DNA of 64,000 nucleotides from a virus (Duplodnaviria > Heunggongvirae > Uroviricota > Caudoviricetes): the IMG/VR virus record IMGVR_UViG_2541047117_000001, positions 24,841 through 88,840 of that record; one strand, given 5' to 3'. The stretch's first letter is position 1. Every line of letters begins with the position of its first letter. Both the position numbers and the translations under genes were made by a program. This document shows positions 3,359-64,000 of this stretch, in pieces. The notes under the pieces were generated by a model. That model was given only the letters and a program-made list of their open reading frames with translations. It was not told the origin of the DNA and ran no database searches.

Positions 3359-3380
3359 TTCATTATTTTTTACACTTGTA
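3359..3380 (-). promoter_or_regulatory. conserved repeated element, copy 2
   Basis: exact consensus, 15 nt before the prs-like start. Confidence 0.65.
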
Positions 3381-3388
3381 ATAAAAAA

Positions 3389-4148: not shown

Positions 4149-4436
4149 TTAGCTTGCCTCACTTACCTCTTCAACTTTTTGCATCACTGCAATCCATTTT
4201 TGATTGAACATCGCACCTTCTCCGCTCCTCATCTTGAGTCTAGTTGGTTTGAGTCCATCTTCTTTAAAACTGTATATCTTACCGCTATTGGCTACTTCGA
4301 AGATTGGTCTAATGCATTCATATCCTCTTCCTTCTAGCTCAATAACACGTTTAACACACTCAAGCTTATCCCCACCAGTGACGGTGATTCTAAAAGGTTG
4401 GTCTTTATCCTTATGGTTGGTCGCCATTTCATACAT
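4149..4436 (-). CDS. hypothetical protein
   Basis: 95 aa; three tandem copies of the conserved motif lie upstream. Confidence 0.5.
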   Translation of the reverse strand: MYEMATNHKDKDQPFRITVTGGDKLECVKRVIELEGRGYECIRPIFEVANSGKIYSFKEDGLKPTRLKMRSGEGAMFNQKWIAVMQKVEEVSEAS

Positions 4437-4438
4437 CC

Positions 4439-4461
4439 TTTTATTATTTTTTACACTTGTA
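4439..4461 (-). promoter_or_regulatory. conserved repeated element, copy 3a
   Basis: first of three tandem copies at 4439..4599. Confidence 0.6.
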
Positions 4462-4504
4462 TGTAATTTTTAAAGTTCACCCGCTTGTGAACTTCTTTAT
4501 ATTA

Positions 4505-4525
4505 TCATTAATTTTTACACTTGTC
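4505..4525 (-). promoter_or_regulatory. conserved repeated element, copy 3b (variant)
   Basis: GACAAGTGTAAAAATTAATGA. Confidence 0.5.
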
Positions 4526-4577
4526 AACATATTCTAAGAAAATTAAGCATTTTGCTCCCCTTCCCTCATCTGATATA

Positions 4578-4599
4578 TTCATTATATATTACACTTGTA
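4578..4599 (-). promoter_or_regulatory. conserved repeated element, copy 3c (variant)
   Basis: TACAAGTGTAATATATAATGAA. Confidence 0.5.
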
Positions 4600-4627
4600 T
4601 CAACTGTCAATGCTTCGGTCAAAAGTT

Positions 4628-5163: not shown

Positions 5164-5595
5164 TTATTCCTCCTCTTCGGACATTTCACAAGCATCTCCA
5201 TAACCTTCCCAGTTATCTACACCCATTGCTTCTAGACAATTTAAGAAGTGTTGGCTCTCTAGTAATCCTTCATATTCTCCTTTAGAGATGGTTGCTGTCT
5301 TAACATTGCCCTTATTCTCTTTGTACAGCTCTACTAACTCCTCACGGCTCTTGCCTAGCAATCCTTGTGTAAACTTAAATAGTTCCCAGTCGGGGAAGTC
5401 GTCATTTCGACAGAAATTACATGTCCCACTATCGTCAATGGTTTCCTGTGTTTCCTCATCAATCTCTTCTCTGAATCCTTCTGCTTTTGCACACTTGTCA
5501 GAACACCAATCATTTCCACATGGACAGCCTACATAATAGCCACAGTCAGCGAAAGTATCCTCACATTTGTTACAACATAAATAATCTACACCCAT
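5164..5595 (-). CDS. Cys-rich hypothetical protein (probable metal-binding)
   Basis: 143 aa; many CxxC pairs and an acidic C-terminal tail; conserved motif upstream. Confidence 0.5.
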   Translation of the reverse strand: MGVDYLCCNKCEDTFADCGYYVGCPCGNDWCSDKCAKAEGFREEIDEETQETIDDSGTCNFCRNDDFPDWELFKFTQGLLGKSREELVELYKENKGNVKTATISKGEYEGLLESQHFLNCLEAMGVDNWEGYGDACEMSEEEE

Positions 5596-5612
5596 TTATT
5601 TCTTCCTTTCAA

Positions 5613-5634
5613 TTCATTATTTTTTACACTTGTA
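5613..5634 (-). promoter_or_regulatory. conserved repeated element, copy 4
   Basis: exact consensus; abuts the dnaE stop codon. Confidence 0.65.
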
Positions 5635-5644
5635 AGGAATTAGA

Positions 5645-8600
5645 TTAATCCCTTACAAGCTTCTTACAGTGAGTGATGTATGAGTCGTACTCATCAATCT
5701 TCACCCATTTACCATCTACTTTACGGCTCTTCTGACGCAACTCTGTATCTAAGAGCTTGATAGTATCTCCTACTTCTAGAGCAGGGTTACCCATACCATC
5801 AAAGTAGTGAACTTTCTTCATCTTCATAGGTACTTCTTGTCCAGTTCTCACTTGGTATAAAGTAATAACTGGTGTGTATTTTGTATTAACATCTACTACA
5901 ACATAGAATGAAGGCTTCACATTCGGCTTCTTAAATGTTGAGTATCCTAAATACTCCTTCTCAAAGCTAATCTGCTCGAATAAATCTAAAGGCGGAAACT
6001 CTAGAGATTTAATGATTTGAATCTCCTCAATTAACAATCCAATACGTTTAACTTTTGTATTAGCCTTATGAGTTTTACTGTATCGGTTCTTACCTTTATA
6101 CACTAATTCTGCAATCTTCAATAACTCCTCAGGTGTTCCATATTCACTAAAGAAGTTCAATCGAATCAAGATATCAAGCTGTTTCGAGTTAACAGATGTT
6201 CTCTCCATGATGTCGATGAATAGCTTTAGGATTGGCTCATCAACTGTTAACACTTCGTCACCCACTAGAATACTTGCCGTATCCTCTTGGTGAGCAATAT
6301 CATACAGCTCATTTGCAATACGCTCATTTAAGAACTTAACAGATTTCAATCCTTTATAGATTGTCTTCGTATTCTTATCAGGTGAATAAGAGCTTAAAGA
6401 TTTACCGAAATGAATCGGAGCAACCTTGATTCCAAATTGGTCAAGCTCTTTCATAATCTTGGCTGTCATAACTGTATCATCTTGATATAGATTCAGAACA
6501 ACCGTGTAATATTCAAGTGGATATTCTGCTTTCAAGTAAGCTCCATAGATTGAATCTAGTGCTACTGATAAGGCATGTGATGCGTTAAATCCATATCCAA
6601 CTGCATCCTCAATGATTTTCCATACCTTTAGAGCTTGTTCATGACTACCTGTTTTCTCAACGAATCCATTGATGAACTTGTCATGGATAGGCTCAATTAC
6701 ACCTTCTACCTTCTTGGAAATGGCTTTTAGGAGTCCATAGGTGACGTCCTCACTAAAGCCTGCGAATACCAGTGCTGACATGATGTTCTCCTGATAGAGT
6801 ACAAAGTTATCACTCTCTTTAAGGATTTCATCAAAAGCAGGAATCCCATATGAGAACGGCTGTCGATTTAAGAATACATCTTTCATAGATGCAAACGATG
6901 GTCGAATCGCTGATACCCATGCGGATAACTCACGGATGCCCTTTGGCATATATCGCTTAACTTGAGGTGTTCCACTATCTGTTCCTGCTTGGTTCAGTGT
7001 AGCGGTTAATCCTTTCTCATATAACTCCCATACTTTAGGGTTATTTTCTACTAACTTAGTTAGTTCACGAATATCGGGAATTGGTGCGCCAATTAGCTCA
7101 AACGTTTCTGCAATAATCCGCCAAACACTTACTGTTAAGAAGTCATTCTTTAGAAATTTCCATACATCTGACGTGTATGAATCTATAACTGCACACATCT
7201 CAGTTCCAACTTTGATAACTCCAACCTCTTCTGAAATCGGCTTATTTAGTAGCAAGAATGCACATGGATGAGGTGATACAGAATCAATTACTCCAACAAA
7301 TCGGTTAGCTTCTTCAATTAAGTCTTTCCATTGTGGATGATTCTCATAGTCCTCAAGATTCTTCGCTACATCGTTGTATTCACTCAGCTTCATGCCTCGT
7401 GAACGACATAAGTTACGGAATGAGGATGAACGCTTCATTGTGCCGAAAGCAGTCATGTAGTAGACATTATCTTCACCAAGGATTTCTTTACATGCCTCTG
7501 CGAACGGTGTCGAGTCAGCAGTATTAAAATCAATATCAGGAAGTGATTTTGTCTCAAGGATACGTGACTTGGACATGAAACGTGTTGGATACAGCGTAAC
7601 AGGAGCATCAACTCTATCAATCTCTGTGAATCCTAATAACTTATTCAAGTAGAATGATGGTGCAGAACCACGACCTGTACGGGTTAAGACTCCACCTTTT
7701 TCTTTTGCTAGTTTGATTCCTTTATAGTTCAGTAGGAAGTAATCTTCCATTTTCGTAGTTTCAATGATATCCATCTCAAACTTAATCGCTTCAATGTATT
7801 CTGCATGGTGACTAACTGGGATGTGCTGTTTATCCTTGTTCCACTCTTTCTGAACAATCTTCTTGAGCTTATTTACCTTCTCTTTATGTGATAGATGAGG
7901 GTAAATCGTAGGCATCTTAATATCCTTATTCAGTACAATCTCTTCAAAGTCATCTACAATACATGTATTCTGCAAGGCTTGTGTGACCTGTTCCTGTGTG
8001 AATACGCCTTGTGCATCATAACGCTCATATAATGTCTCTGAGCTTGGATAATCTAAGATGAATCCATCTTCATCATCATAGAAGATTCCTTTACCCTGTA
8101 GGAGTAAATCACGATACTTAGCATCTTCGGGATAGATATAATGCGTATCATTAGCATGTACTAATGGAATATTATATTTCTCGTGGAATGCTAAAATCTT
8201 TTCGTTGTATGCTTTCTGTACTGGGTGAACGTGAGGTTGAATCTCTAGATAGAAATTATCACCGAAGTACTTATGACATTTGCAAATGAAGCAGTCAGCA
8301 TATTCGCTGTCATACTTATTAACTGGACTCGCCACACATGTTGATGTGACAACTACATCTTTCGGATTCAATGAGAATAATAACTCTTCATCAATACGTG
8401 GCTTGTAGTAATAGCCTGTCTTATTTGCTTCTGACATAATACTAATCAACTGCTTCATACCTCGCTCATTACGAGCCATAACTAATAGATGGGTATTCGT
8501 CTTATCTTTCTCGAAGCGGTTCTTAACGTAATAGAACTCGATTCCAAAGATGTATTTTAATCCGTATTTCTTAGCTACATCATAGTATTCAAAAATATTT

Positions 8601-11246: not shown

Positions 11247-11268
11247 TTCATTATTTTTTACACTTGTA
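11247..11268 (-). promoter_or_regulatory. conserved repeated element, copy 8
   Basis: exact consensus. Confidence 0.65.
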
Positions 11269-11302
11269 ATTAATGCTATAGAAAGCAACATTTTATTGAT
11301 TT

Positions 11303-24668: not shown

Positions 24669-25340
24669 CTAGATACCTAATTCCTCTAATTTCTCTTTTA
24701 CAAGCTTAACTACATACTCTTTGTCCGATTCGTTATGAACATAGTCTAGATTGTCCACTTCAATGATTAAGACTTCGCTAGCTTTATAGTGTTTCATTAC
24801 CCACTCGTCGTACTTTTCCCATAGGAATCTGTAGTACTCGACTAGTTTTTCATCTAATTCAAACTCACGTCCACGTTGCTTGATTCGCTTTATTACCGTT
24901 TCAAAACTTCCTTTTAGATAAACCATAAGGTCAGGAGATTTCTTCGGTAATTCCTCAAGTTCCTCCATCATGTTTTCAAAGAGTCCCATGTAGATTGTTT
25001 CCTCTAAATCAGTAATTCGGTTTTCTCCAATTAATCGTCCGTATTGCTGATTACGCTTCATGAAATAGATATCTTCATAGATACTGCGGTCTAATACGTT
25101 GTGAGAGTGTATCAAGGCTCTCTTAATAGAATCAAATCTCGTATTTAAGAACCACAGTTGCAGTAGGAATGTTAAGCGCTCTGCTTCTGCTTCCTCTTTA
25201 CTTGCTGTATAGAATCGCTCCAATACAGGGTTGTTGTCTACTGATTCGTAGAACACTTCACTTTCTAATGTTTCGCCTAATAATTTAGCCATGCTAGATT
25301 TCCCTAAAGAAATCATTCCGCCTACACAGATAATAGCCAT
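24669..25340 (-). CDS. deoxynucleoside kinase (dCK/dGK family)
   Basis: 223 aa with the family's N-terminal nucleotide-binding segment. Confidence 0.65.
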   Translation of the reverse strand: MAIICVGGMISLGKSSMAKLLGETLESEVFYESVDNNPVLERFYTASKEEAEAERLTFLLQLWFLNTRFDSIKRALIHSHNVLDRSIYEDIYFMKRNQQYGRLIGENRITDLEETIYMGLFENMMEELEELPKKSPDLMVYLKGSFETVIKRIKQRGREFELDEKLVEYYRFLWEKYDEWVMKHYKASEVLIIEVDNLDYVHNESDKEYVVKLVKEKLEELGI

Positions 25341-31485: not shown

Positions 31486-31507
31486 TTCATTATTTTTTAC
31501 ACTTGTA
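31486..31507 (-). promoter_or_regulatory. conserved repeated element, copy 14
   Basis: exact consensus; abuts the nrdI start region. Confidence 0.65.
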
Positions 31508-31553
31508 AGTTAAACTATGGAGCAGAGTATCCACTCCATAGTAGTTTTATTGC

Positions 31554-33970: not shown

Positions 33971-34249
33971 TTACTTCTTTCGATAAATAAACACTTGAAC
34001 CAACACTATCATTGCTAGACCTAAATTAAATGTCTCTGTAATCAGATAGCCATATGTTCCAAATTTGTTATAAATCATAAATGCATTTGTGAACATAAGA
34101 GTTAATGCAATGTTTAACAATACCCAAAACCATAATGAGATACTACTAACATCTTTAGTCTTATAGTTTTTAACAATCTGAGGAATATAACAGATTGATA
34201 GGAATACCGTTGCAATAATCGGCACCAATTCTAGTAATAACTTTTCCAT
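33971..34249 (-). CDS. PQ-loop (SemiSWEET-like) small membrane transporter candidate
   Basis: 92 aa, three TM helices, PQ motif YIPQIVKNYKTKD in TM1. Confidence 0.45.
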   Translation of the reverse strand: MEKLLLELVPIIATVFLSICYIPQIVKNYKTKDVSSISLWFWVLLNIALTLMFTNAFMIYNKFGTYGYLITETFNLGLAMIVLVQVFIYRKK

Positions 34250-45330: not shown

Positions 45331-45352
45331 TTCATTATTTTTTACACTTGTA
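45331..45352 (-). promoter_or_regulatory. conserved repeated element, copy 23
   Basis: exact consensus upstream of the RecJ-like gene; a leader hairpin follows at 45310..45330. Confidence 0.65.
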
Positions 45353-45368
45353 AGACATTTATTAGAGC

Positions 45369-46442: not shown

Positions 46443-47987
46443 CTACTTACTGTTTCTATCGTCATCTACCATTGTGAATCCTCTTTCAATCCAAGTATTT
46501 GTTGCCATATTGACTTCAAACACCAACATATTCAAGCCTGTGTTATTTGCTTTCCCTCGTCGGTTCTTAGGAACAAAGAGAATCTGATACTTCTTCTTAG
46601 GGTCTAATGTAAACTCTTCTTTTACCCATCCATTCTTAGCAAAAGGATTGCTTTCATTTTTCACATAGTGATAGCACAGTAATTCGTTCTTACCACCTTC
46701 ATACTCAGATTGATAAGCCCAACGAGCCAGTAATAGTTGCCCTGCTTCGTTCTTAATTTTCTTAGATTCACCAAGACACGTTTCATCTAGGTATCTACGA
46801 CCAATCGTATTGTCTCCTAATTGGACATTAATCCAACATCTCATGTTGAGACCATTCGCATTTTTACGTGAAAGTTGATACATCTTCTTGATAGATTCGT
46901 AGAAGCTCTCCCAACGAGAAGAATACATATCATCCTCAGGTGGCTTAGCTGTATCGACAATGACACTTCCTGTCCCTCTTCGAGCATGTCTACGCATTAC
47001 ACGTTCAACATTTTTTGTTGTGTAGTTCTCTAAGAATACAAGAGTAATAAGTTTATCGTTACCCTCTGTGAATTGCTTCAACCATGCAGAAGCATCTTTA
47101 AGTTTCTTCTTCTCTTCTGCTGTAAATTCACCCTCATTCAACCTTTGACGGTCAATTATATTACCACTCTGTCCCATTGCTGTGATGAGTAGCATCTTCT
47201 TCCATTCCATTTCATCCTGCTCATTCGCAATGATAAGTAACTTCTCTTTCTGTTCAATGTGAGACATAATAACTTTACTGATAGTGAAAGATGTTTTACC
47301 ACCACCCGAATAGTTGGCTAATATGTATGTAGTTCCTCGTGCAAATCCACTAAATATCTTTGTTAACTGTGGACTACGATAGAAAGGCATTCCTGCATCG
47401 ACATTTTTATCCCAAATATCAATTGCTTCATCCATTCCTTCTAATAAGCTACACTCATCGAATTTCTCACCTTGTGTGGTGCTTACGTTACTAACCTTAT
47501 CTACCCAGTAATTCCACACAGTCTCACTGTCTAGTAGCTTATAGTCATAGTTTCCATCTTTGGTAACGACCTTATCACCAAACAAGTCGTATAATTCCTT
47601 GACTGTGTTATATTTCTGAACCTCTTCATAATAGGCTTCGAAGTTCTCTGCACGCTGTTTCACTTCCACCATGACCTGCTTCATCGTATCGAATCCACCA
47701 AAGCTATCGTAAAGCTTAACGTGCTTCTTACTTAAATCATTCAACGTCTTTTGAGTTACGATATCGTCAAATACACGGATATCCGCATCAAACATTGTTC
47801 TTCCTAACTCAAAAAAGAATCCCCAGTGTGGATTTCTGAATGTTGAATGATTCAGCTTTTCTTTGCTGTATAAATTGTAATACTCTTCGGGGTTATGCCA
47901 AAACAAACCCGTCAACAGAGCCTCGGAGATTTCGGCTTCTTTAGCCAACTTTTTTGCGACTTCTTCTGCTGTATTCTTTTTAGTCAA
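46443..47987 (-). CDS. replicative DNA helicase (DnaB-like)
   Basis: 514 aa; Walker A GGGKTSF within a RecA-like C-terminal domain. Confidence 0.6.
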   Translation of the reverse strand: MTKKNTAEEVAKKLAKEAEISEALLTGLFWHNPEEYYNLYSKEKLNHSTFRNPHWGFFFELGRTMFDADIRVFDDIVTQKTLNDLSKKHVKLYDSFGGFDTMKQVMVEVKQRAENFEAYYEEVQKYNTVKELYDLFGDKVVTKDGNYDYKLLDSETVWNYWVDKVSNVSTTQGEKFDECSLLEGMDEAIDIWDKNVDAGMPFYRSPQLTKIFSGFARGTTYILANYSGGGKTSFTISKVIMSHIEQKEKLLIIANEQDEMEWKKMLLITAMGQSGNIIDRQRLNEGEFTAEEKKKLKDASAWLKQFTEGNDKLITLVFLENYTTKNVERVMRRHARRGTGSVIVDTAKPPEDDMYSSRWESFYESIKKMYQLSRKNANGLNMRCWINVQLGDNTIGRRYLDETCLGESKKIKNEAGQLLLARWAYQSEYEGGKNELLCYHYVKNESNPFAKNGWVKEEFTLDPKKKYQILFVPKNRRGKANNTGLNMLVFEVNMATNTWIERGFTMVDDDRNSK

Positions 47988-51184: not shown

Positions 51185-51607
51185 TCACTCTTCCTCTCCA
51201 ACGAACTTAATGATTGTTCTACCTTCGTGACCATGAATATGCTGTACTGACTGCACATTAGGATAAATGTTATGAGAAATAACATAAGACTGTGACCACT
51301 CATGAATGCATTTACCACTAGGCATAACAACACCTTCGGCTACAATTCCAGTACCACTCACTCCACTGAAATCTTCATTTCTTTGCAGATAGTATTCTCG
51401 CAATCTATCCTTGCCCTTTGATTTTAACGGCACTAACTTTGTACCTTTATCTCTATTACAAACGAACTCTTTCACTTGTTCGATATTGTCATAGAATGAT
51501 AATGTCTTTATAGCGCTAGTCCACTCTAACAATGTGATGTTTGATTTCAGCGTTACACCTACAGCTAAAACCTTTTCATGTTCATCTATAATCTTAAATT
51601 GTTCCAA
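51185..51607 (-). CDS. hypothetical protein
   Basis: 140 aa; TTG start after AAGGAG. Confidence 0.45.
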   Translation of the reverse strand: MEQFKIIDEHEKVLAVGVTLKSNITLLEWTSAIKTLSFYDNIEQVKEFVCNRDKGTKLVPLKSKGKDRLREYYLQRNEDFSGVSGTGIVAEGVVMPSGKCIHEWSQSYVISHNIYPNVQSVQHIHGHEGRTIIKFVGEEE

Positions 51608-52566: not shown

Positions 52567-53295
52567 TTATGCGACATTTTCAATCGAGTGATTGAACACT
52601 TTATTAATCTTCGTCATGCCATGATGTATTTGCATTGAGATAGTTGCCCTGCTCTTCCCTAGCATCTCTCCAATTTCTGTTGGAGTATATCCTTGCAATC
52701 GAAGTTCAATGCAGGTTCTTTGCGTTTCAGATACTACAGCTAATCGTTGGGAAAGCCCTGTTTTGAGACCTGCTAATTCCATATCATGATGAGCGCTCTC
52801 ATCACTCAGTGTATCAATTAGCTTCAAGTTCTCTCCTTCTTTACTGTTACCAACTGTTGTCTCAATGCTCATTACTGTCATGTCCATAAATGACAAAGCT
52901 CTTTTCATAACCTCATCTGACGCATCAAATGTCTTTTGAATCTCTTCTAGAGTTTTCTTCCCTCGATGCTTACGCATGTATTTCGCAATCCGTGTAACCT
53001 CATAGCTTACTCGAACACCTTTGTATGTACTTCGTATTGCATTATAGATTTCCGTTCGGATATATCTAACGGCTATCGTTGAGAGTTTGCCTTTTGATTC
53101 ATCATAAGCATCTAATGACTTCATCCACCCAATGATTCCAAATTGCGCTAAATCATCAAATGTATAACCATGTGTCTTTTCATAATAAGAATAGTAAGTA
53201 AAATATTTACGTATCGTATCAGCTACTAATTTATATCCGTTTTCGGGCAATGTTAAATCTTTTTCTTCTATAGCTTGTAATTCATCTATTTGCAT
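52567..53295 (-). CDS. sigma-70-family RNA polymerase sigma factor
   Basis: 242 aa; region-2-like FGIIGWMKSLDAYDESKG...IRTEIYNAIR and region-4 HTH TPTEIGEMLGKSRATISMQIHHG. Confidence 0.65.
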   Translation of the reverse strand: MQIDELQAIEEKDLTLPENGYKLVADTIRKYFTYYSYYEKTHGYTFDDLAQFGIIGWMKSLDAYDESKGKLSTIAVRYIRTEIYNAIRSTYKGVRVSYEVTRIAKYMRKHRGKKTLEEIQKTFDASDEVMKRALSFMDMTVMSIETTVGNSKEGENLKLIDTLSDESAHHDMELAGLKTGLSQRLAVVSETQRTCIELRLQGYTPTEIGEMLGKSRATISMQIHHGMTKINKVFNHSIENVA

Positions 53296-55946: not shown

Positions 55947-55985
55947 AGAAGAAAAGGATATACTTCTCCCCTCCATGTATGTAAT

Positions 55986-56007
55986 TCATTATTTTTTACA
56001 CTTGTAA
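55986..56007 (-). promoter_or_regulatory. conserved repeated element, copy 26b
   Basis: exact consensus; a 7-bp-stem hairpin at 55944..55968 lies between the two copies. Confidence 0.65.
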
Positions 56008-57995: not shown

Positions 57996-58068
57996 AGACG
58001 AGACACCCTTAGCTATACTTTTGCTAAAGGTGTCTCAGCAATAACAGTGGTTCGACATGGTTGCTCCA

Positions 58069-58341
58069 TCATTCCTCACCTTCTTCCGCTGTTGGCTTTA
58101 ATTCGAAGATATCTTTAATATCTATCTCTAAAGCTTCACAAATTACATATGCATAAGTTAGCTTCCACAGGTTTTGTTTATTAATTAGAGCAATGAACCC
58201 CCTATACTTGATATGGATACCGTATTCATCAACAATCTTCTCCCATAGTTGTTTCGCATTCATATCTTTTCTTTCTAGATACATTTTGAATTTATCTTTA
58301 TTCATCCTTGCTTCGAGTTTATGCTCAACTTTATAACCCAT
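58069..58341 (-). CDS. XRE-family helix-turn-helix transcriptional regulator
   Basis: 90 aa; C-terminal HTH-like LTYAYVICEALEIDIKDIFEL. Confidence 0.5.
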   Translation of the reverse strand: MGYKVEHKLEARMNKDKFKMYLERKDMNAKQLWEKIVDEYGIHIKYRGFIALINKQNLWKLTYAYVICEALEIDIKDIFELKPTAEEGEE

Positions 58342-58356
58342 AATTCAAATCGCTCC

Positions 58357-59373
58357 TTAATTGTCTTGTCCTAAAAAGTCACCATATAATTCTTTTATAT
58401 TTTTAACATTACAATATTTTTTCATTGGATAGAAATTATTAATATCAAATCTAATTGCTATATTTTTATAATCTTCTGTGCTTAGGTAGTACTCGCCTTT
58501 TTCTTCCATTATTTTCTTAGCCATATATAATTGTCCACTTTTTATGATGCTTTTAGTTTTTAATTGAGGATATCCTAAAACTTCACCGATTAAATTAACA
58601 CGTCTATAGATAACAGATTCTTTAATAGCTTGATGATAACTTCCTGTTCTTGTTATAGAAGGACGGAATACATATTCATTATCAACCAATTCAGTAACGG
58701 CACGGATATTTTCCCTTTGCTCCATGTCTCCGTTTTTCTTCCAGTATCTCTTCTCTTGCATAGCTTGTTCTAGCATAAGTACAGTACGAGCATCAACTTC
58801 TGTGAAAGCTCCACCAATATTTAAAGGCACTTTTGTATCTTCTATATCACTATTAAGTCCTTTTTCTTGCATAAATTCTAGAGCCTGTTCTACGTCTGAC
58901 TTTTTCAGTTCTCTAATTTCTATAGCTTTTTCTCCACAAATTCCTTCAAATAATAATCTAATTATTGTTGAGTCTTGATAGTTATAACAATCTGATTCGA
59001 TTTTTAGTAGTTGTTTTTTAGTTATATATAGATTTTTTACATTTTCACTGATATTTTCAAACCATTTAGCGCTAACATCTAGTAGAGGATTATTAGTTTT
59101 TTTGTAGTTATTTTCTACTGCCCATTTCATATACGCTGAAATTACACGACCGTAAACTTCTGTTGCCTGTGCGCTTCCACGTAATTGAATTAAAAGCTCT
59201 TCAATTTCTTCTAATGTAAAATCATATAAATCTTTATTTAGAGTTTCTTCCATTTGTTCAGCTTTGGTGAATATTCTATTGTAGTATGATTTAGTTGTAT
59301 CGTTAGTATAGTTAGTTAAAAATAAGTCTTTTGCAGTTTCACCGTTCTTTAGCTCATCCATTCCGTGAGTCAT
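58357..59373 (-). CDS. hypothetical protein; candidate SPbeta MrpR/YopR-type repressor (recombinase-like fold), low certainty
   Basis: 338 aa and AT-rich; N-terminus faintly resembles an integrase SAM-like domain; no catalytic R..H..R..Y tetrad recognised. Confidence 0.35.
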   Translation of the reverse strand: MTHGMDELKNGETAKDLFLTNYTNDTTKSYYNRIFTKAEQMEETLNKDLYDFTLEEIEELLIQLRGSAQATEVYGRVISAYMKWAVENNYKKTNNPLLDVSAKWFENISENVKNLYITKKQLLKIESDCYNYQDSTIIRLLFEGICGEKAIEIRELKKSDVEQALEFMQEKGLNSDIEDTKVPLNIGGAFTEVDARTVLMLEQAMQEKRYWKKNGDMEQRENIRAVTELVDNEYVFRPSITRTGSYHQAIKESVIYRRVNLIGEVLGYPQLKTKSIIKSGQLYMAKKIMEEKGEYYLSTEDYKNIAIRFDINNFYPMKKYCNVKNIKELYGDFLGQDN

Positions 59374-59559
59374 TTCTTACCACTTCTCCTTTATACCTCT
59401 GTAACTTTGTAATTTCTACTTTACCTGTAACTCAACTGTTTAAATTGGTTTAAGTTGACTATGTTCGTAGTCTATGTATGTGTATGTGTGTGTATGTTCG
59501 CTGACTATTGCCAGCAGTCAAATTATACCATATATAAAATCCATTGCCAATACCAAATT

Positions 59560-59580
59560 TCCTTATTTTTTCCATTTGTC
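59560..59580 (-). promoter_or_regulatory. degenerate copy of the repeated element upstream of the 338-aa candidate regulator gene
   Basis: GACAAATGGAAAAAATAAGGA. Confidence 0.3.
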
Positions 59581-59863
59581 TAGATATTAACAGAGAATTT
59601 ATACATTAAATGTATATTCAACGTATATTATAGATGTTAATTTAACGATATATATTGTGTGTGTGCTACCTTAACATCCTATGTTTACTGCATACAAATA
59701 GTATACAATCATAATATGTACACTGTCAATGCATTATTGTCGGTTTTTAAGTTCGATTTATTATTATTTACACTATATGCTAGATTTTAATTATTTTTTA
59801 TATCTCCGACTTAGATATATATAACATATGAGACCTTCGCATTCAAGTAATAAAAATTCAAAT

Positions 59864-59897
59864 TAACAAAAAAAATAAGACAGTGTAATACTGTCTT
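59864..59897 (-). terminator. rho-independent terminator
   Basis: AAGACAGT / ACTGTCTT hairpin then a run of 8 T on the minus strand. Confidence 0.6.
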
Positions 59898-59941
59898 AAT
59901 AATTGCCTTTACATTTGAAACATTTCAGTAAATATTAACCT

Positions 59942-60277
59942 TTATTTTAGAGAGTCAGATGTCGATTCCGTTTGAGGTGTCTGAGAAGCCGTTTGAGCGT
60001 CTGATTTTTTTAAAGCTATAATTTCATTTAGTTTCTTTAGAATAAGCCCTAGAGCTAAGAATAATGCTCCTACAAGCAATCCTGAGAATATCATTGTATA
60101 TCCGTATAAACTATATGACCTTGCTATTCCTTTATAAACTTCGTTATAGAACTCTAGCTCATAGTAAGATTCCTTCATTTCGTTTGCTACGTTTAAATTA
60201 GCGTTTCCAACATTCATCATTATTAGGCATGAAATAATCCCGATTGCTATAAATATAAGGTGTAAGTACTTCTTCAT
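59942..60277 (-). CDS. membrane protein
   Basis: 111 aa, two TM helices; followed by an intrinsic terminator. Confidence 0.45.
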   Translation of the reverse strand: MKKYLHLIFIAIGIISCLIMMNVGNANLNVANEMKESYYELEFYNEVYKGIARSYSLYGYTMIFSGLLVGALFLALGLILKKLNEIIALKKSDAQTASQTPQTESTSDSLK

Positions 60278-60493
60278 TAGTTTAATTCTCCTGTTGTAAT
60301 GTAATATTTGTTAAATACATTATAGCAATCAATAAAGTTTACAGTCAATCTGAGTAAATGAGATTCGGTTTATTGTTTTTTGAATGAATCCTTTGATGAT
60401 TATTTTTAGATGCAGGCGAAGCCTATATATTAATTAATTATTAAGGTCTTTTTAAAAGATTTGTTTTTTTAAAAGAATATTGTCTTATTATAC

Positions 60494-60750
60494 TATCACC
60501 GTGTGATAGGCGGTCGTGTATCATGTGGTGATAGGTGGGTACTATCATGCTGTGATAGGCGGAAATCCCGTGTATCATTTCATGATAGGCGGAAATTGTG
60601 GATAATTTCAAAAAATCTGTGGATAAGTCGCCTATCATATGGTGATAGGCGTCGCCTATCATGTGGTGATAGGCAGTGTATCACACGGTGATAGGCGGGA
60701 ATCGTTTCGTGTATCATGTGGTGATAGGCAGTGTATCATACCGTGATAGG
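60494..60750. repeat. iteron array: nine 17-bp palindromic units TATCA-N5-TGATAGG(C) spaced ~23-32 bp, interrupted by two DnaA boxes
   Basis: units at 60494, 60519, 60543, 60573, 60633, 60657, 60679, 60712, 60734; each has inverted arms (GCC)TATCA / TGATAGG(C). Confidence 0.7.
60597..60626. promoter_or_regulatory. two direct perfect DnaA boxes (TGTGGATAA = TTATCCACA) 21 bp apart inside the iteron array
   Basis: 60597..60605 and 60618..60626. Confidence 0.6.
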
Positions 60751-60803
60751 CGGAAGGATTATTTTTCTGAAAAAATAAAAAAGCAAGAGGAAAATCCCCT
60801 TGC

Positions 60804-61811
60804 TTAAATTTCTACGATATATTCATCGTGTGTTTTGAATATGTATGTTGTATCTTCTACGTTGAATCCGATTTGCTTTCCGACCTCTTCTGCGATAATT
60901 GTTTTAAACTTATCTTGAACGTGTGTTTTAGCAAAGTCATGAGCGCATAACACGTAGACTGAATTTTTCTCTGAATCTAAGGCAAGTACAGCGTCCTTAA
61001 ACCAAACATCGAATGATGGCTTAGCAATTCTCTCTTGAAGAGATGTGAGAATCTTCTCTCCTGCTTCGATGCACTCAGGAGCGATTTTTTCTCTTATGTA
61101 TGTTGCTTTATTTTCTTCTTCAATCTTTTCTTTGGCTTCACGAATCTGAGATTTGCTTCTAAATAACTCAGCGTTTTCAATTAACCCTTCGATTACTTTG
61201 CTGTTTTTTAGCTCATTAGTCGCAATGTCAATATCCTTATAATCTTCCATATATGTATCATGGTCTTTTTTTAGTTTAGCAGGTAGCTCTTCATAGAGTT
61301 CATTAGTTAATAGAGGTACAAACCTTCTAATCTTAAACAGAGGACTCACAGAGCGGTTGTTATCCTTTGTATCACGTCTGTTGAAGATGACAATAAAGTT
61401 ATGCTCTTCTAATGTCTTTAGACATCCTTTTACAAAGTTCTTACTCTTCTTCATCTTCAATGCGATAGTGTCTATGTCAGGGAAGCAGAAGTCTTTTTTG
61501 CCGTAAGCATGACGTCTTAGATGGATATACACTTGAATGCATTCTGAACCTAATACAGCTCCCCAAAAGTCTAGTAGATAGTTTTGAATCATAGTGAAGT
61601 CTTCTGCGTCCAATGTAGGAACACATTCACCAATCGAGTTAAGATTCAATGCTTTAATCTCTTCGAACTCTACAATACGTTGCTCTCTAATTGGTACACG
61701 TCTTGAGCCATTTCTAGTATTTTGAGTTGTGAATTTTCCTGTATGAACCTCTCTATAGTGAAGATATCGTTCATTTTTATATCCTGCATATAAATCTTTG
61801 TTATTTTCCAT
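60804..61811 (-). CDS. putative replication initiator (Rep-like winged-helix protein)
   Basis: 335 aa; sits 40 bp from an iteron array with two DnaA boxes; function inferred from context only. Confidence 0.45.
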   Translation of the reverse strand: MENNKDLYAGYKNERYLHYREVHTGKFTTQNTRNGSRRVPIREQRIVEFEEIKALNLNSIGECVPTLDAEDFTMIQNYLLDFWGAVLGSECIQVYIHLRRHAYGKKDFCFPDIDTIALKMKKSKNFVKGCLKTLEEHNFIVIFNRRDTKDNNRSVSPLFKIRRFVPLLTNELYEELPAKLKKDHDTYMEDYKDIDIATNELKNSKVIEGLIENAELFRSKSQIREAKEKIEEENKATYIREKIAPECIEAGEKILTSLQERIAKPSFDVWFKDAVLALDSEKNSVYVLCAHDFAKTHVQDKFKTIIAEEVGKQIGFNVEDTTYIFKTHDEYIVEI

Positions 61812-62057
61812 TTGTGTTTCCTCCTAAATGCGCTGTTTAGGAGCTTCACTCATATTTACTTATCCCATTGTTTATGATATTATAAACATACAAATCTAAT
61901 GTTAACGAGACTTGCATCTACTCATTTGAGTGAAGCTCCATTTTTGGGATACTTCGTAGATACAATCTCTCCAATGCCCATTCATAAAGTTTTGGTTGGT
62001 CGCCATTTCAACTTTGAGAGTGGGTTTTTTCATGCTCTTTTTTACCTCTTAAATCAA

Positions 62058-62357
62058 TCATGATGCTATATTCAACTCATAAACGTTGAAATTCTGTCTA
62101 CCATAGTAACGCATAACTTTCAAAAAACCCTTTTCTTCTAGTGATTTAATGAATTTAATGACGCTTCTGCGAGTTAAAGAGCATTTATGAGCGATTTCTT
62201 CATATGCCATTTCGATACTGCTTCCATTGCCTTCCACACATAGAGTCAATAAAACTAGCTTTTCGTTAGCAGTCAACTCTTCTGTTCGAATAATATTGTT
62301 TGCAATGTGTGTCATGTATCTCACCTCAACCTTCTTTAATAAGTGAATTTGATGCAC
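62058..62357 (-). CDS. winged-helix DNA-binding protein
   Basis: 99 aa with a wHTH (EIAHKCSLTRRSVIKFIKSLEEKGFL); degenerate motif upstream. Confidence 0.45.
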   Translation of the reverse strand: MHQIHLLKKVEVRYMTHIANNIIRTEELTANEKLVLLTLCVEGNGSSIEMAYEEIAHKCSLTRRSVIKFIKSLEEKGFLKVMRYYGRQNFNVYELNIAS

Positions 62358-62390
62358 CTATTCAACAAAAAAATATGGTGTATTTCAATC

Positions 62391-62417
62391 TTACATTATT
62401 TATTACATTTGTGCAAT
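62391..62417 (-). promoter_or_regulatory. degenerate copy of the repeated element upstream of the wHTH gene at 62058..62357
   Basis: TGCACAAATGTAATAAATAATGTAA. Confidence 0.35.
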
Positions 62418-62565
62418 GGAAGAATTGTAGAATCATAATGAAATTTGTAACCATTTGATTTTACGTGTCAAACTGTATCTCTAGCACTTTCATAGTATAG
62501 CACCCTTGAAATCCACTGTCAATGGATTTGTGTATAAAAAAAGAGAGATTATAATAATCTCCCTC

Positions 62566-63153
62566 TTATCTATTCAAATCACCAAGAGAAGGCATTACAG
62601 CAGGCTTACTTACTGGTTCTTCCTTCTTCACTTCAACTGGTTTTTCTTCTCCAAGCATTCGCTTAGGTTGAGCTTCTTGGCGTTTCTCTTTAATAACTTT
62701 TGGCACATCTAAACTACTAACCTCTTCTACAACAGGTTCTTCTACTTCATTTACTACTTCCTCTACGACCTCTTGTACAGGCTCTTGAGGAGTATCTGTT
62801 ACTTCCACAGTCTTTTCTTCAACTGTTGATGCTATTTCTTCTACAACTTCCTCTGCAACCTCTTGAACAGGTTCAGATTGTGTTTGTATTGGTGTTGCTT
62901 GTGTTTTAGCGACAGGAGTTGGTATTTGCACAGGTGTAGGATTGTCCAAATCGACCATTCCCATCTCTATCAGAAGTTTAAGTTTTTTAACGTCTATATC
63001 CCCGAATTTTTGCATGAAATAATCTAAAACAAATCGGAATGAATCTGAGAAGTTATCTTGGTTATTATACCAATCAACGAATTTTTGGTCGTCTACTCCA
63101 AACTTATAGATAATAGTTGAACCGACTTGTTTATCCTTTTTAGTTGCACTCAT
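62566..63153 (-). CDS. putative segregation adaptor (ParR/AlfB/Alp7R-like by position)
   Basis: 195 aa; ~70-aa folded N-terminus then acidic P/V/E-rich repeats; immediately downstream of the actin-like ATPase gene. Confidence 0.35.
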   Translation of the reverse strand: MSATKKDKQVGSTIIYKFGVDDQKFVDWYNNQDNFSDSFRFVLDYFMQKFGDIDVKKLKLLIEMGMVDLDNPTPVQIPTPVAKTQATPIQTQSEPVQEVAEEVVEEIASTVEEKTVEVTDTPQEPVQEVVEEVVNEVEEPVVEEVSSLDVPKVIKEKRQEAQPKRMLGEEKPVEVKKEEPVSKPAVMPSLGDLNR

Positions 63154-63195
63154 AATTGTAATACCCTCCTGTTAGTCAAAAGCAAAAGACGTAAT

Positions 63196-64000
63196 TTACG
63201 CCTTCTGCTTCTCTTTCTTAGCCATGTATTGTTCTTTTAATTGTGGAAGTAATACATTTAAGAATACATCCATGCCTTCTACGTTGATTGTTGTAGCGTA
63301 CTTCTCAGGAATCCATAGGAGCTTTCCACGGCAATCATCTGCAACTGCTTTAAGCGGGTTATATAGCTTGTCTTTAAGCGTGATAGAGCCACCACCGAAT
63401 ACAGAGATTAAACGAGGTTGTTTTCTAGCTCCATGAACAACTAATTGCTCAACAAATTTGTGAATTAGTGTTGCTTGGTCTGATGAATTGTCTTTCAGTG
63501 TAGCAACTGCTTCTACATGGAATGCATCATCTGAATCTTTTACGATTTCCATGTATTCATGTCGTGTTAATGCAGGGAATCTCATTGCCTTCTTGAACAC
63601 TGGAAGAGCTTTAGTGATTGCATAGCCAACTCCTAAGTCGTCTCCACCACTTAAATCATCAATTTGCTTATAGCCTTTTAAGATTCCAACGTCAGTTGTT
63701 CCCTCTCCGATATCAGTTCCACAAGTCATTTTCATGTTGAACACATCTTCACCTGTAAAGCTATCTAATTGATATTCCCATTTTAATTCTTCAAAAATAT
63801 CATCATTTCTCCATTGTCCTTTGTTATCAAGGATAAGTGCGTAGTTTGCACATGCACCCTCTTGTAATGCATAAACAAATTCAAAAGTGATTGATACTTT
63901 TACGAATGTTGTACCAACATGAACCATTACTTCGTGTGTATTATTCATGAAACGCTCTTCAAAGGCTTTTGCCGTAGTAGCGTCGTATTCTTTAATAGGT
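63196..64000 (-). CDS. actin-like segregation ATPase (ParM/Alp family); N-terminus lies beyond the window end
   Basis: phosphate-2 motif DIGEGTTDVGIL; frame stays open to position 64000. Confidence 0.6.
   Translation of the reverse strand, partial: PIKEYDATTAKAFEERFMNNTHEVMVHVGTTFVKVSITFEFVYALQEGACANYALILDNKGQWRNDDIFEELKWEYQLDSFTGEDVFNMKMTCGTDIGEGTTDVGILKGYKQIDDLSGGDDLGVGYAITKALPVFKKAMRFPALTRHEYMEIVKDSDDAFHVEAVATLKDNSSDQATLIHKFVEQLVVHGARKQPRLISVFGGGSITLKDKLYNPLKAVADDCRGKLLWIPEKYATTINVEGMDVFLNVLLPQLKEQYMAKKEKQKA

Follow-up and report, generated by a model that had tools for sequence, protein, structure and literature searches.

What function is served by nine palindromic repeats and two DnaA boxes that lie together between genes of a large bacteriophage? 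The question is posed by a 64,000-nucleotide stretch of a virus of the class Caudoviricetes (IMG/VR record IMGVR_UViG_2541047117_000001, positions 24,841 to 88,840), referred to here in its entirety as the window, in which a repeat array at 60494-60750 follows rep, a minus-strand gene (60804-61811) for a 335-amino-acid initiator. An earlier note on this DNA had read the array as an iteron-type origin equipped with host DnaA boxes and serving the neighbouring Rep, and the comparative analysis described here sustains that reading, an equivalent layout being present at approximately 19 of 22 loci that encode Rep homologues, including that of plasmid pBS72. We put at roughly 85% the probability that the array is the Rep-bound, DnaA-box-containing replication origin of a theta replicon of the pBS72 type. 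To our knowledge, no origin map has been published for Bacillus phages of this size, and the assignment supplies a concrete origin and initiator for a large SPbeta-like phage of the Bacillus cereus group that is probably maintained as a plasmid.

Architecture of the array and its flanks

The nine units begin exactly where the earlier note had placed them, as established by reading of the sequence together with a scan of the whole window. Counted from the end farthest from rep, where the first repeat abuts an AT-rich element, they are unit 1 (60494-60510, TATCACCGTGTGATAGG), unit 2 (60519-60535, TATCATGTGGTGATAGG), unit 3 (60543-60559, TATCATGCTGTGATAGG), unit 4 (60573-60589, TATCATTTCATGATAGG), unit 5 (60633-60649, TATCATATGGTGATAGG), unit 6 (60657-60673, TATCATGTGGTGATAGG), unit 7 (60679-60695, TATCACACGGTGATAGG), unit 8 (60712-60728, TATCATGTGGTGATAGG) and unit 9 (60734-60750, TATCATACCGTGATAGG), the last being nearest to rep. 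When the 64-kb window was scanned with the pattern TATCANNNNNTGATAGG, allowing at most one mismatch, 14 matches were obtained against 0.41 expected from shuffled sequences (largest shuffle, 3); 13 of these fall inside 60492-60750, some of them representing the identical dyad on the opposite strand, and the sole match outside the array, at 34186, carries one mismatch. No second array of the TATCA-N5-TGATAGG type was detected by the scan of the window.

Two perfect DnaA boxes (TTATCCACA, both on the minus strand) are located between units 4 and 5, at 60597-60605 (box 1) and 60618-60626 (box 2), and split the array 4 + 5 as had been described. The entire window contains three perfect boxes of this sequence, of which the two in the array are 21 bp apart. 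In the closest relative of the locus (L004), box 1 is kept and box 2 reads TTATCCACG.

The description of the units as sharing extended palindromic arms holds in part. The symmetric core of each unit is the dyad TATCA-N5-TGATA, but symmetry reaches the full outer extension, GCCTATCA...TGATAGGC, in units 5 and 6 only. Asymmetry is restricted to the outer flank, where a GGCGG-type sequence is found on the same side in all nine units, which are thus head-to-tail direct repeats of an imperfect palindrome. Centre-to-centre distances between successive units are 25, 24, 30, 60, 24, 22, 33 and 22 bp, placing neighbours about two helical turns apart, and the gaps between units are irregular, measuring 5-16 bp, with 43 bp across the DnaA boxes.

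Which parts of the units matter can be judged from comparison of the window with L004, whose Rep is 97% identical. The two arrays differ by 16 substitutions. None affects the arms (0/90), whereas 8 of the 45 core positions and, in total, 16 of the 165 non-arm columns are changed (Fisher p = 1e-4 for arms versus cores, and 9e-4 for arms versus all non-arm columns). The arms are therefore under constraint and the cores free. The TGTGG cores to which attention had been drawn do exist, in units 2, 6 and 8, but have no evident meaning; since the cores are the fastest-changing part between close relatives, their sequence is probably not read.

Along the minus strand, the parts of the locus follow one another in the order rep (61811-60804), terminator, units 9 to 5, the two DnaA boxes, units 4 to 1, and an AT-rich segment (60493-60423). 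The array is intergenic and, as the earlier note had it, lies downstream rather than upstream of rep; it also lies past the intrinsic terminator of that gene (60781-60805, minus strand), an 11-pair stem followed by a T-run that separates rep transcription from the array. This position proves to be the rule in the family, and a counterpart of the hairpin is present after rep in L001, L004-L009, L013 and L021. Beyond unit 1, the low-stability segment at 60423-60493 is a candidate unwinding element: two 40-mers, with starts at 60423 and 60457, reach the 99.99th and 99.7th percentiles of low duplex stability for the 64-kb window, in which few stretches are less stable than 60423-60496, the likely site of unwinding. 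The segment holds a family-conserved motif at 60443-60493, which on the rep-sense strand reads TATAATAAGACAATATTCTTTTAAAAAAACAAATCTTTTAAAAAGACCTT and contains AAGACAATATTCTTTTAA and AAACAAATCTTTTAA. In an alignment of the window with 11 other loci, the core AAAACAATCTTTTAA stands directly after the last repeat in all 12, pBS72 included, regardless of the sequence of the repeats themselves. Beyond the AT-rich stretch, a strong sigma-A-type promoter (TTGACT-18-TATAAT, 60348-60319) serves a gene for a 111-amino-acid membrane protein.

The Rep protein and the loci of its relatives

Rep combines one winged helix with a C-terminal module resembling domain I of DnaA. Pfam matches to HTH_36 (residues 94-140, 29 bits) and DnaA_N (residues 252-308, 25.2 bits) both exceed their gathering scores, accompanied by a sub-threshold match to DnaD_N and by none to Rep_3 or RepA_N. 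Among PHROGs, Rep matches phrog_26369, annotated as 'replication initiation protein' (E 7e-43), and none of the O-like families. A profile of 19 members of the Rep family matches domain I of Bacillus subtilis DnaA (PDB 4tps_B, E 5.5e-12) over a segment of the form SKPSF(D/E)TW.... In an AlphaFold model (mean predicted local distance difference test score, pLDDT, 78.7), an N-terminal beta-hairpin is followed by a winged helix (residues ~69-161), a helical linker and a C-terminal domain (~245-327); the central part matches winged helices of the MarR/TFE type, and Foldseek places the C-terminal domain on 4tps with a template modelling (TM) score of 0.81 and a root-mean-square deviation of 1.7 A.

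The protein is also homologous to RepA of pBS72. A tblastn comparison with NZ_KX711616 yielded 32.3% identity over residues 17-311, amounting to 88% of the length (E 1e-38), and the two proteins align end to end in a wide alignment of the family, in which W83, C109, K119-M120, K160, R162, P166 and H184 are invariant. Relatives of the locus were found at the protein level only, a megablast search of 58000-64000 against phage and plasmid collections having returned no match. A search for related loci with a narrower Rep alignment yielded two genome loci and two viral loci. The wider survey took in rep homologues 22-61% identical, together with their flanks, from contigs encoding such homologues and from PLSDB matches. 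Represented were the phages PJN02, PK-3 and Jenst; IMG/VR contigs; assemblies of B. cereus, B. spizizenii, Priestia, Viridibacillus, Virgibacillus, Oceanobacillus, Brevibacillus and Geomicrobium; the plasmids pBS72, pHT01, pG9842_140 and pCR3; and further plasmids from B. velezensis, Niallia, Cytobacillus, Bacillus sp. S3, Thermobacillus, Paenibacillus and B. licheniformis.

At approximately 19 of the 22 distinct loci, the 450 bp after the rep stop codon contain a family of dyad repeats that is not seen elsewhere in the locus; the dominant palindromes number up to 10 copies just after rep and 0 in the remainder of each locus. The shared layout consists of the rep stop, a terminator, dyad repeats, at least one DnaA box that is usually mid-array, more repeats, and the AT-rich AAAACAATCTTTTAA. 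It is seen in L001 and L002 (PJN02 and PK-3), L004-L010, L012, L015, L016, L019, L021, L022 and L024-L027, carried by plasmids, by phage or phage-plasmid contigs of ~115-165 kb, and by phage PJN02; in pG9842_140, the array extends from +540 to +800 after rep. Perfect DnaA boxes are similarly concentrated, 17 of them lying no more than 300 bp past the rep stop, in 15 of the ~22 loci, as opposed to 2 in the remaining ~130 kb of flanks.

In contrast to the layout, the sequence of the repeats is specific to lineage. The arms read TATCAC/GTGATA in the window, L004 and L005; TATCAA/TTGATA in L006, L008-L010, L015 and L019; TACCG/CGGTA in L007; TAGTATTAA/TTAATACTA in PJN02; ATTAA/TTAAT in pBS72 and pCR3; TGAAA/TTTCA in pBL141-2; and ACTCA/TGAGT in Geomicrobium, and in parallel the predicted recognition helix of Rep begins with different residues (SKN, GRT, TPV or SRP). 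One suggestion of the earlier note, that the units might be mixed sites for Rep and DnaA, finds no support in this pattern: the arms change completely from lineage to lineage and the DnaA box stays TTATCCACA, so that repeats and DnaA box are separate elements. Together these data suggest that a single origin grammar, composed of a terminator, lineage-specific dyad iterons, one or more embedded DnaA boxes and the invariant AAAACAATCTTTTAA, is spread across Bacillales plasmids, phage-plasmids and plaque-forming phages of ~165 kb. The primary papers on pBS72 aside, this plan common to the family may be newly described, above all as regards its invariant AT-rich core and the placement of the DnaA box in mid-array.

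Individual loci depart from the common plan in detail. In B. licheniformis plasmid pBL141-2 (L027), five tandem DnaA-like boxes head nine repeats, at +24 to +70 after rep. In the Cytobacillus plasmid (L024), within +40 to +330, the AT-rich element comes before the array and the DnaA box is flipped, and the entire origin thus seems inverted relative to rep. Brevibacillus phage Jenst (L003), a distant relative, has repeats (GGGTGGGTCAAAATCTG) and perfect DnaA boxes (4471 and 4498) within rep itself, at 4412-4618, in a lambda-like arrangement, and its partition gene adjoins rep. In PJN02 (L001), an apparent cluster of transfer RNA (tRNA) genes, marked by repeated GGTTCGAATCC T-arm motifs, lies at 5500-6000, ~300 bp past the origin array, and an exact copy of ATAAAACAATCTTTTAA is found at 5486, between the array and the apparent cluster.

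Among characterized replicons, that of pBS72 provides the closest parallel. Firstly, the Rep proteins are homologous over their full length and have the architecture of winged helix and DnaA domain I in common. Secondly, 3' of the pBS72 repA there follow a terminator, dyads of the ATTAAAATTTAAT type, one perfect DnaA box (L013 1388-1396), more dyads and AAAACAATCTTTTAAGAAAAGC. Every feature of the pBS72 replicon that could be looked for in sequence was found at the window locus, which accordingly belongs to the same kind of replicon. The two differ in that the window has nine regular units of TATCA-N5-TGATA and two DnaA boxes, compared with fewer, looser units of ATTAA-N3-TTAAT and one box in pBS72, in a Rep identity of ~32%, and in that the replicon of the window is a phage of ~153 kb that encodes a helicase, a primase and a Pol III alpha. 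Titok and colleagues are said to have found in 2006 that pBS72 needs RepA and an iteron-containing origin, and that its RepA has a domain like the helicase-binding domain of DnaA. In the literature, pBS72 is described as a putative conjugative plasmid of 102 kb (PMC8708921) whose low-copy theta replicon, at ~6 copies per cell, drives pHT01 and pNDH33 (PMC5615212) and works without the two ORFs (open reading frames) upstream of repA, leaving repA and the downstream region (PMC6331482). The replicon behind these Bacillus expression vectors is now seen to belong to a broad family with a fixed origin layout in plasmids and phages, and, as Rep and repeats differ in specificity from one lineage to the next, the family offers ready material for new compatible vectors. 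The vectors pMTLBS72 and pHCMC are based on the pBS72 replicon as well.

Other iteron systems resemble the locus less completely. The RepA_N theta initiators of Firmicutes, known from staphylococcal and enterococcal plasmids and including RepA of pSK41 and pTZ2162, reportedly bind iterons through a dimeric winged-helix N-terminal domain and recruit host factors through the C-terminal domain, in the account attributed to Schumacher and co-workers in 2014. Rep gives weak fold matches to 4pql and 4pt7 (E 0.07-0.09, TM 0.43-0.46), but RepA_N iterons lie inside rep, the C-terminal domain is a different one, and Rep has no Pfam RepA_N match. With lambda ori/O and SPP1 oriL/G38P, the locus shares iterons that flank an AT-rich unwinding region and are individually dyad-symmetric, which fits binding by a winged-helix initiator in dimeric form, and an initiator whose C-terminal part recruits helicase loading (for SPP1, PMC5615212), a role that in Rep is predicted. 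Unlike the window array, those iterons are situated inside the initiator gene and come without DnaA boxes, O and G38P have no DnaA-domain-I module, and the match to O-like PHROGs that Rep lacks is found instead in a separate 99-amino-acid protein. Finally, the classical iteron origins of plasmids from Gram-negative bacteria, namely P1 oriR, F ori2, pSC101 and RK2 oriV, whose initiators are of the Rep_3 (WH1-WH2) type, likewise bring together repeats of ~17-22 bp spaced at ~22 bp, DnaA boxes and an AT-rich element (PMC4980987), with the initiator encoded beside the origin. Their iterons are asymmetric and bound by Rep monomers with two winged helices, as opposed to the dyads of the window and a Rep that has one winged helix, DnaA domain I and no Rep_3 match, and their DnaA boxes usually stand at the edge of the origin rather than in mid-array.

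Competing explanations and the proposed mechanism

The strongest of the alternatives, which we nonetheless regard as improbable, is that the array is mainly a locus of control or incompatibility, acting by titration, handcuffing or transcriptional regulation, and that initiation takes place elsewhere. Iteron arrays in the classical plasmids P1, F and RK2 serve both initiation and control, nine sites exceed what a minimal origin needs, and unit 1 abuts a TATAAT hexamer. This hexamer is not kept in pBS72 or pCR3, however, and no promoter was called there; the array of the window, moreover, is a single one, placed past the rep terminator and not at the rep promoter. Throughout the family, DnaA boxes form part of the arrangement, as does a conserved and very unstable AT-rich element, which is the grammar of an origin and not that of an operator.

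Less probable still is that the array acts as the centromere (parC-like) of the actin-like partition system encoded upstream. Centromeres are also repeat arrays, and the actin-like gene and a gene for a 195-amino-acid protein are found ~1.8 kb upstream on the same strand. Centromeres of actin-type systems, however, normally lie just upstream of the motor gene, whereas the array is ~2.4 kb downstream of it, beyond rep, and a separate block of AT-rich 10-bp repeats (L028 7274-7327) does stand upstream of the actin-like gene. Arrays also follow rep where no partition genes adjoin it and in pHT01, a vector derived from pBS72, and neither DnaA boxes nor an unwinding element is a feature of centromeres.

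An equally remote prospect is that the units are operators, bound either by the MrpR/YopR-like repressor encoded at 58357-59373 or by the 99-amino-acid winged-helix protein encoded at 62058-62357. The former gene is 1.1 kb away, and proteins with the tyrosine-recombinase fold typically bind palindromic sites (PMC10516654); the latter protein has an HTH_36 domain, as does Rep. Yet the site of MrpR in SPbeta is SPBRE, a 15-bp motif scattered among nine promoter regions (PMC10516654), unlike the array motif, which occurs at one place only, and a 23-nucleotide motif with 26 dispersed, co-oriented copies in the window is a better candidate for the site of a global regulator or for a phage promoter. 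L006-L010, L013, L019, L021 and L022, furthermore, keep the array with neither an MrpR nor a small winged-helix gene nearby, and, as for the 99-amino-acid protein, no similarity between it and Rep could be detected, and most of the array-bearing relatives lack it.

That the repeats arose by chance, or constitute a CRISPR (clustered regularly interspaced short palindromic repeats) array, a coding repeat or a structured RNA, is excluded: the excess of 14 matches over 0.41 expected disposes of chance, the gaps are irregular, an Rfam search of the array found no family near its gathering score, and four short ORFs overlapping it (60441-60662, 60503-60691, 60580-60717 and 60676-60807) encode periodic peptides and are by-products of the repeats. 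A CRISPR array, which consists of identical repeats of 24-48 bp and unique spacers alike in length, had already been discounted in the earlier note, rightly, as the units are dyads of 17-22 bp with no spacer-sized inserts between them.

Several points do weigh against the origin reading itself. No array stands right after rep in L020, L023 or L011 (the contig of the last ends ~350 bp after rep), and L010, L015 and L025 are without a clear DnaA box. Profiles of GC skew and cumulative skew for the window were uninformative as to the placement of an origin, every gene of the window being on the minus strand. The phage has a helicase, primase and Pol III alpha of its own, so that another origin may be used for lytic growth. 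The role of DnaA is uncertain, since accounts of the DnaA dependence of pBS72 differ: the 2006 work of Titok and colleagues is said to have found a need for DnaB, DnaC, DnaD, DnaG, DnaI, PolC and DnaE, and not for DnaA. In a later account, by contrast, the replicon is 'thought to be DnaA-dependent' (PMC5615212, citing a 2003 paper). Lastly, which protein binds which site, where the duplex melts, that replication initiates here and which helicase is loaded are inferred from sequence.

Under the origin reading, dimers of Rep would bind the nine dyads through the winged helix, reading the TATCA/TGATA arms and not the 5-nucleotide core, and host DnaA would occupy the two central TTATCCACA boxes. 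The resulting nucleoprotein complex would open the AT-rich element beside unit 1 (60423-60493), whereupon the DnaA-domain-I-like module of Rep may recruit helicase loading, by way of either host DnaD/DnaB/DnaI-DnaC or the DnaB-like helicase of the phage. The most likely role of such an origin is low-copy theta replication of the phage genome as a plasmid-state prophage, and it is possibly used for the first lytic rounds as well. These considerations sharpen the question of what a conserved DnaA box contributes where the initiator already carries the recruitment domain of DnaA. A speculative answer, which we consider doubtful, is that a conserved host factor, engaged through the DnaA-domain-I mimic of Rep, might be loaded sequence-specifically at the invariant AAAACAATCTTTTAA, and that the origin might serve the plasmid prophage through the host replisome and, once the phage is induced, work with the helicase, primase and Pol III alpha that the phage encodes; the central DnaA boxes would then represent an input from the host cell cycle or from sporulation (SirA-type) and not an essential initiator site.

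The carrier phage and its neighbouring genes

The window comprises the module for replication and nucleotide metabolism of a large SPbeta-like phage. Its genes, all on the minus strand, encode a Pol III alpha-type polymerase, a DnaB-like helicase (46443-47987), a DnaG-like primase and a RecJ-like nuclease, as well as an ATP-dependent ligase, a ribonucleotide reductase, and YorF-like and AAA_24 proteins. Rep is 100% identical to a B. cereus protein on contigs of up to 152,852 bp and 97% identical to a protein on an IMG/VR contig of 153,621 bp. Rep and its closer relatives are recorded on contigs of 20-200 kb and never on contigs of chromosome size, with the exception of a Brevibacillus laterosporus homologue, which is in the chromosome, and PJN02-like genomes of ~162-166 kb have been deposited as 'plasmids'. 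From this pattern of contigs and deposits, in the company of an actin-like partition gene upstream of rep, we infer a plasmid prophage, and the carrier, a ~153 kb SPbeta-like phage of the B. cereus group, thus probably persists as a plasmid.

Upstream of rep lie the genes for the 99-amino-acid winged-helix protein and the 195-amino-acid protein, and the actin-like partition gene (63196-64000 and beyond, minus strand), which is cut by the end of the window and encodes 400 amino acids in L028 (7414-8616). Upstream of the latter gene in L028, outside the window, the region 7248-7412 includes, besides the AT-rich 10-bp repeats mentioned above, a duplicated 20-mer (AGATGTTTAAAAATGGTGAA), and this repeat block is a candidate centromere. 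The 99-amino-acid protein (HTH_36; gene on the minus strand) shows matches to the N-terminal portions of several phage PHROGs, both 'replication initiation' and O-like ones, and a similar small gene precedes rep only in relatives from the B. cereus group (L005 and L028).

On the other side of the array, the minus-strand MrpR/YopR-type gene encodes a protein with both MrpR Pfam domains (E 1e-19 and 1e-15), and is followed by a gene for a small Cro/C1-type helix-turn-helix protein (58069-58341, minus strand). Proteins of the MrpR type, which have a tyrosine-recombinase fold, act as the master repressor of SPbeta (PMC10516654). A sigma-70-family factor with regions 2 and 4 is encoded at 52567-53295 (minus strand). 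The dispersed 23-nucleotide motif, TTCATTATTTTTTACACTTGTAA, has 26 copies with at most 3 mismatches (0 expected) between 262 and 57122, all on the plus strand, examples being those at 3359-3381, 5613-5635, 11247-11269, 31486-31508, 45331-45353 and 55985-56007. On the coding strand the copies read TTACAAGTGTAAAAAATAATGAA, and the sites that were spot-checked are intergenic, just before gene starts. The motif may be a phage-specific promoter, the phage encoding a sigma factor, or an SPBRE-like MrpR operator.

Two further genes of the window deserve mention. A 140-amino-acid protein encoded at 51185-51607 (minus strand; L028 20205-20627) is assigned in precomputed annotation to Pfam PF26761 (Acb5), for which a fresh Pfam scan gave no match at E <= 0.001. 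A nicotinamide phosphoribosyltransferase (phrog_448, E 2e-203) is encoded at 292-2040, on the minus strand, and phage genes of this kind, which function in the salvage of nicotinamide adenine dinucleotide (NAD), have been discussed as a means of counter-defence (bioRxiv 10.1101/2024.02.11.579819).

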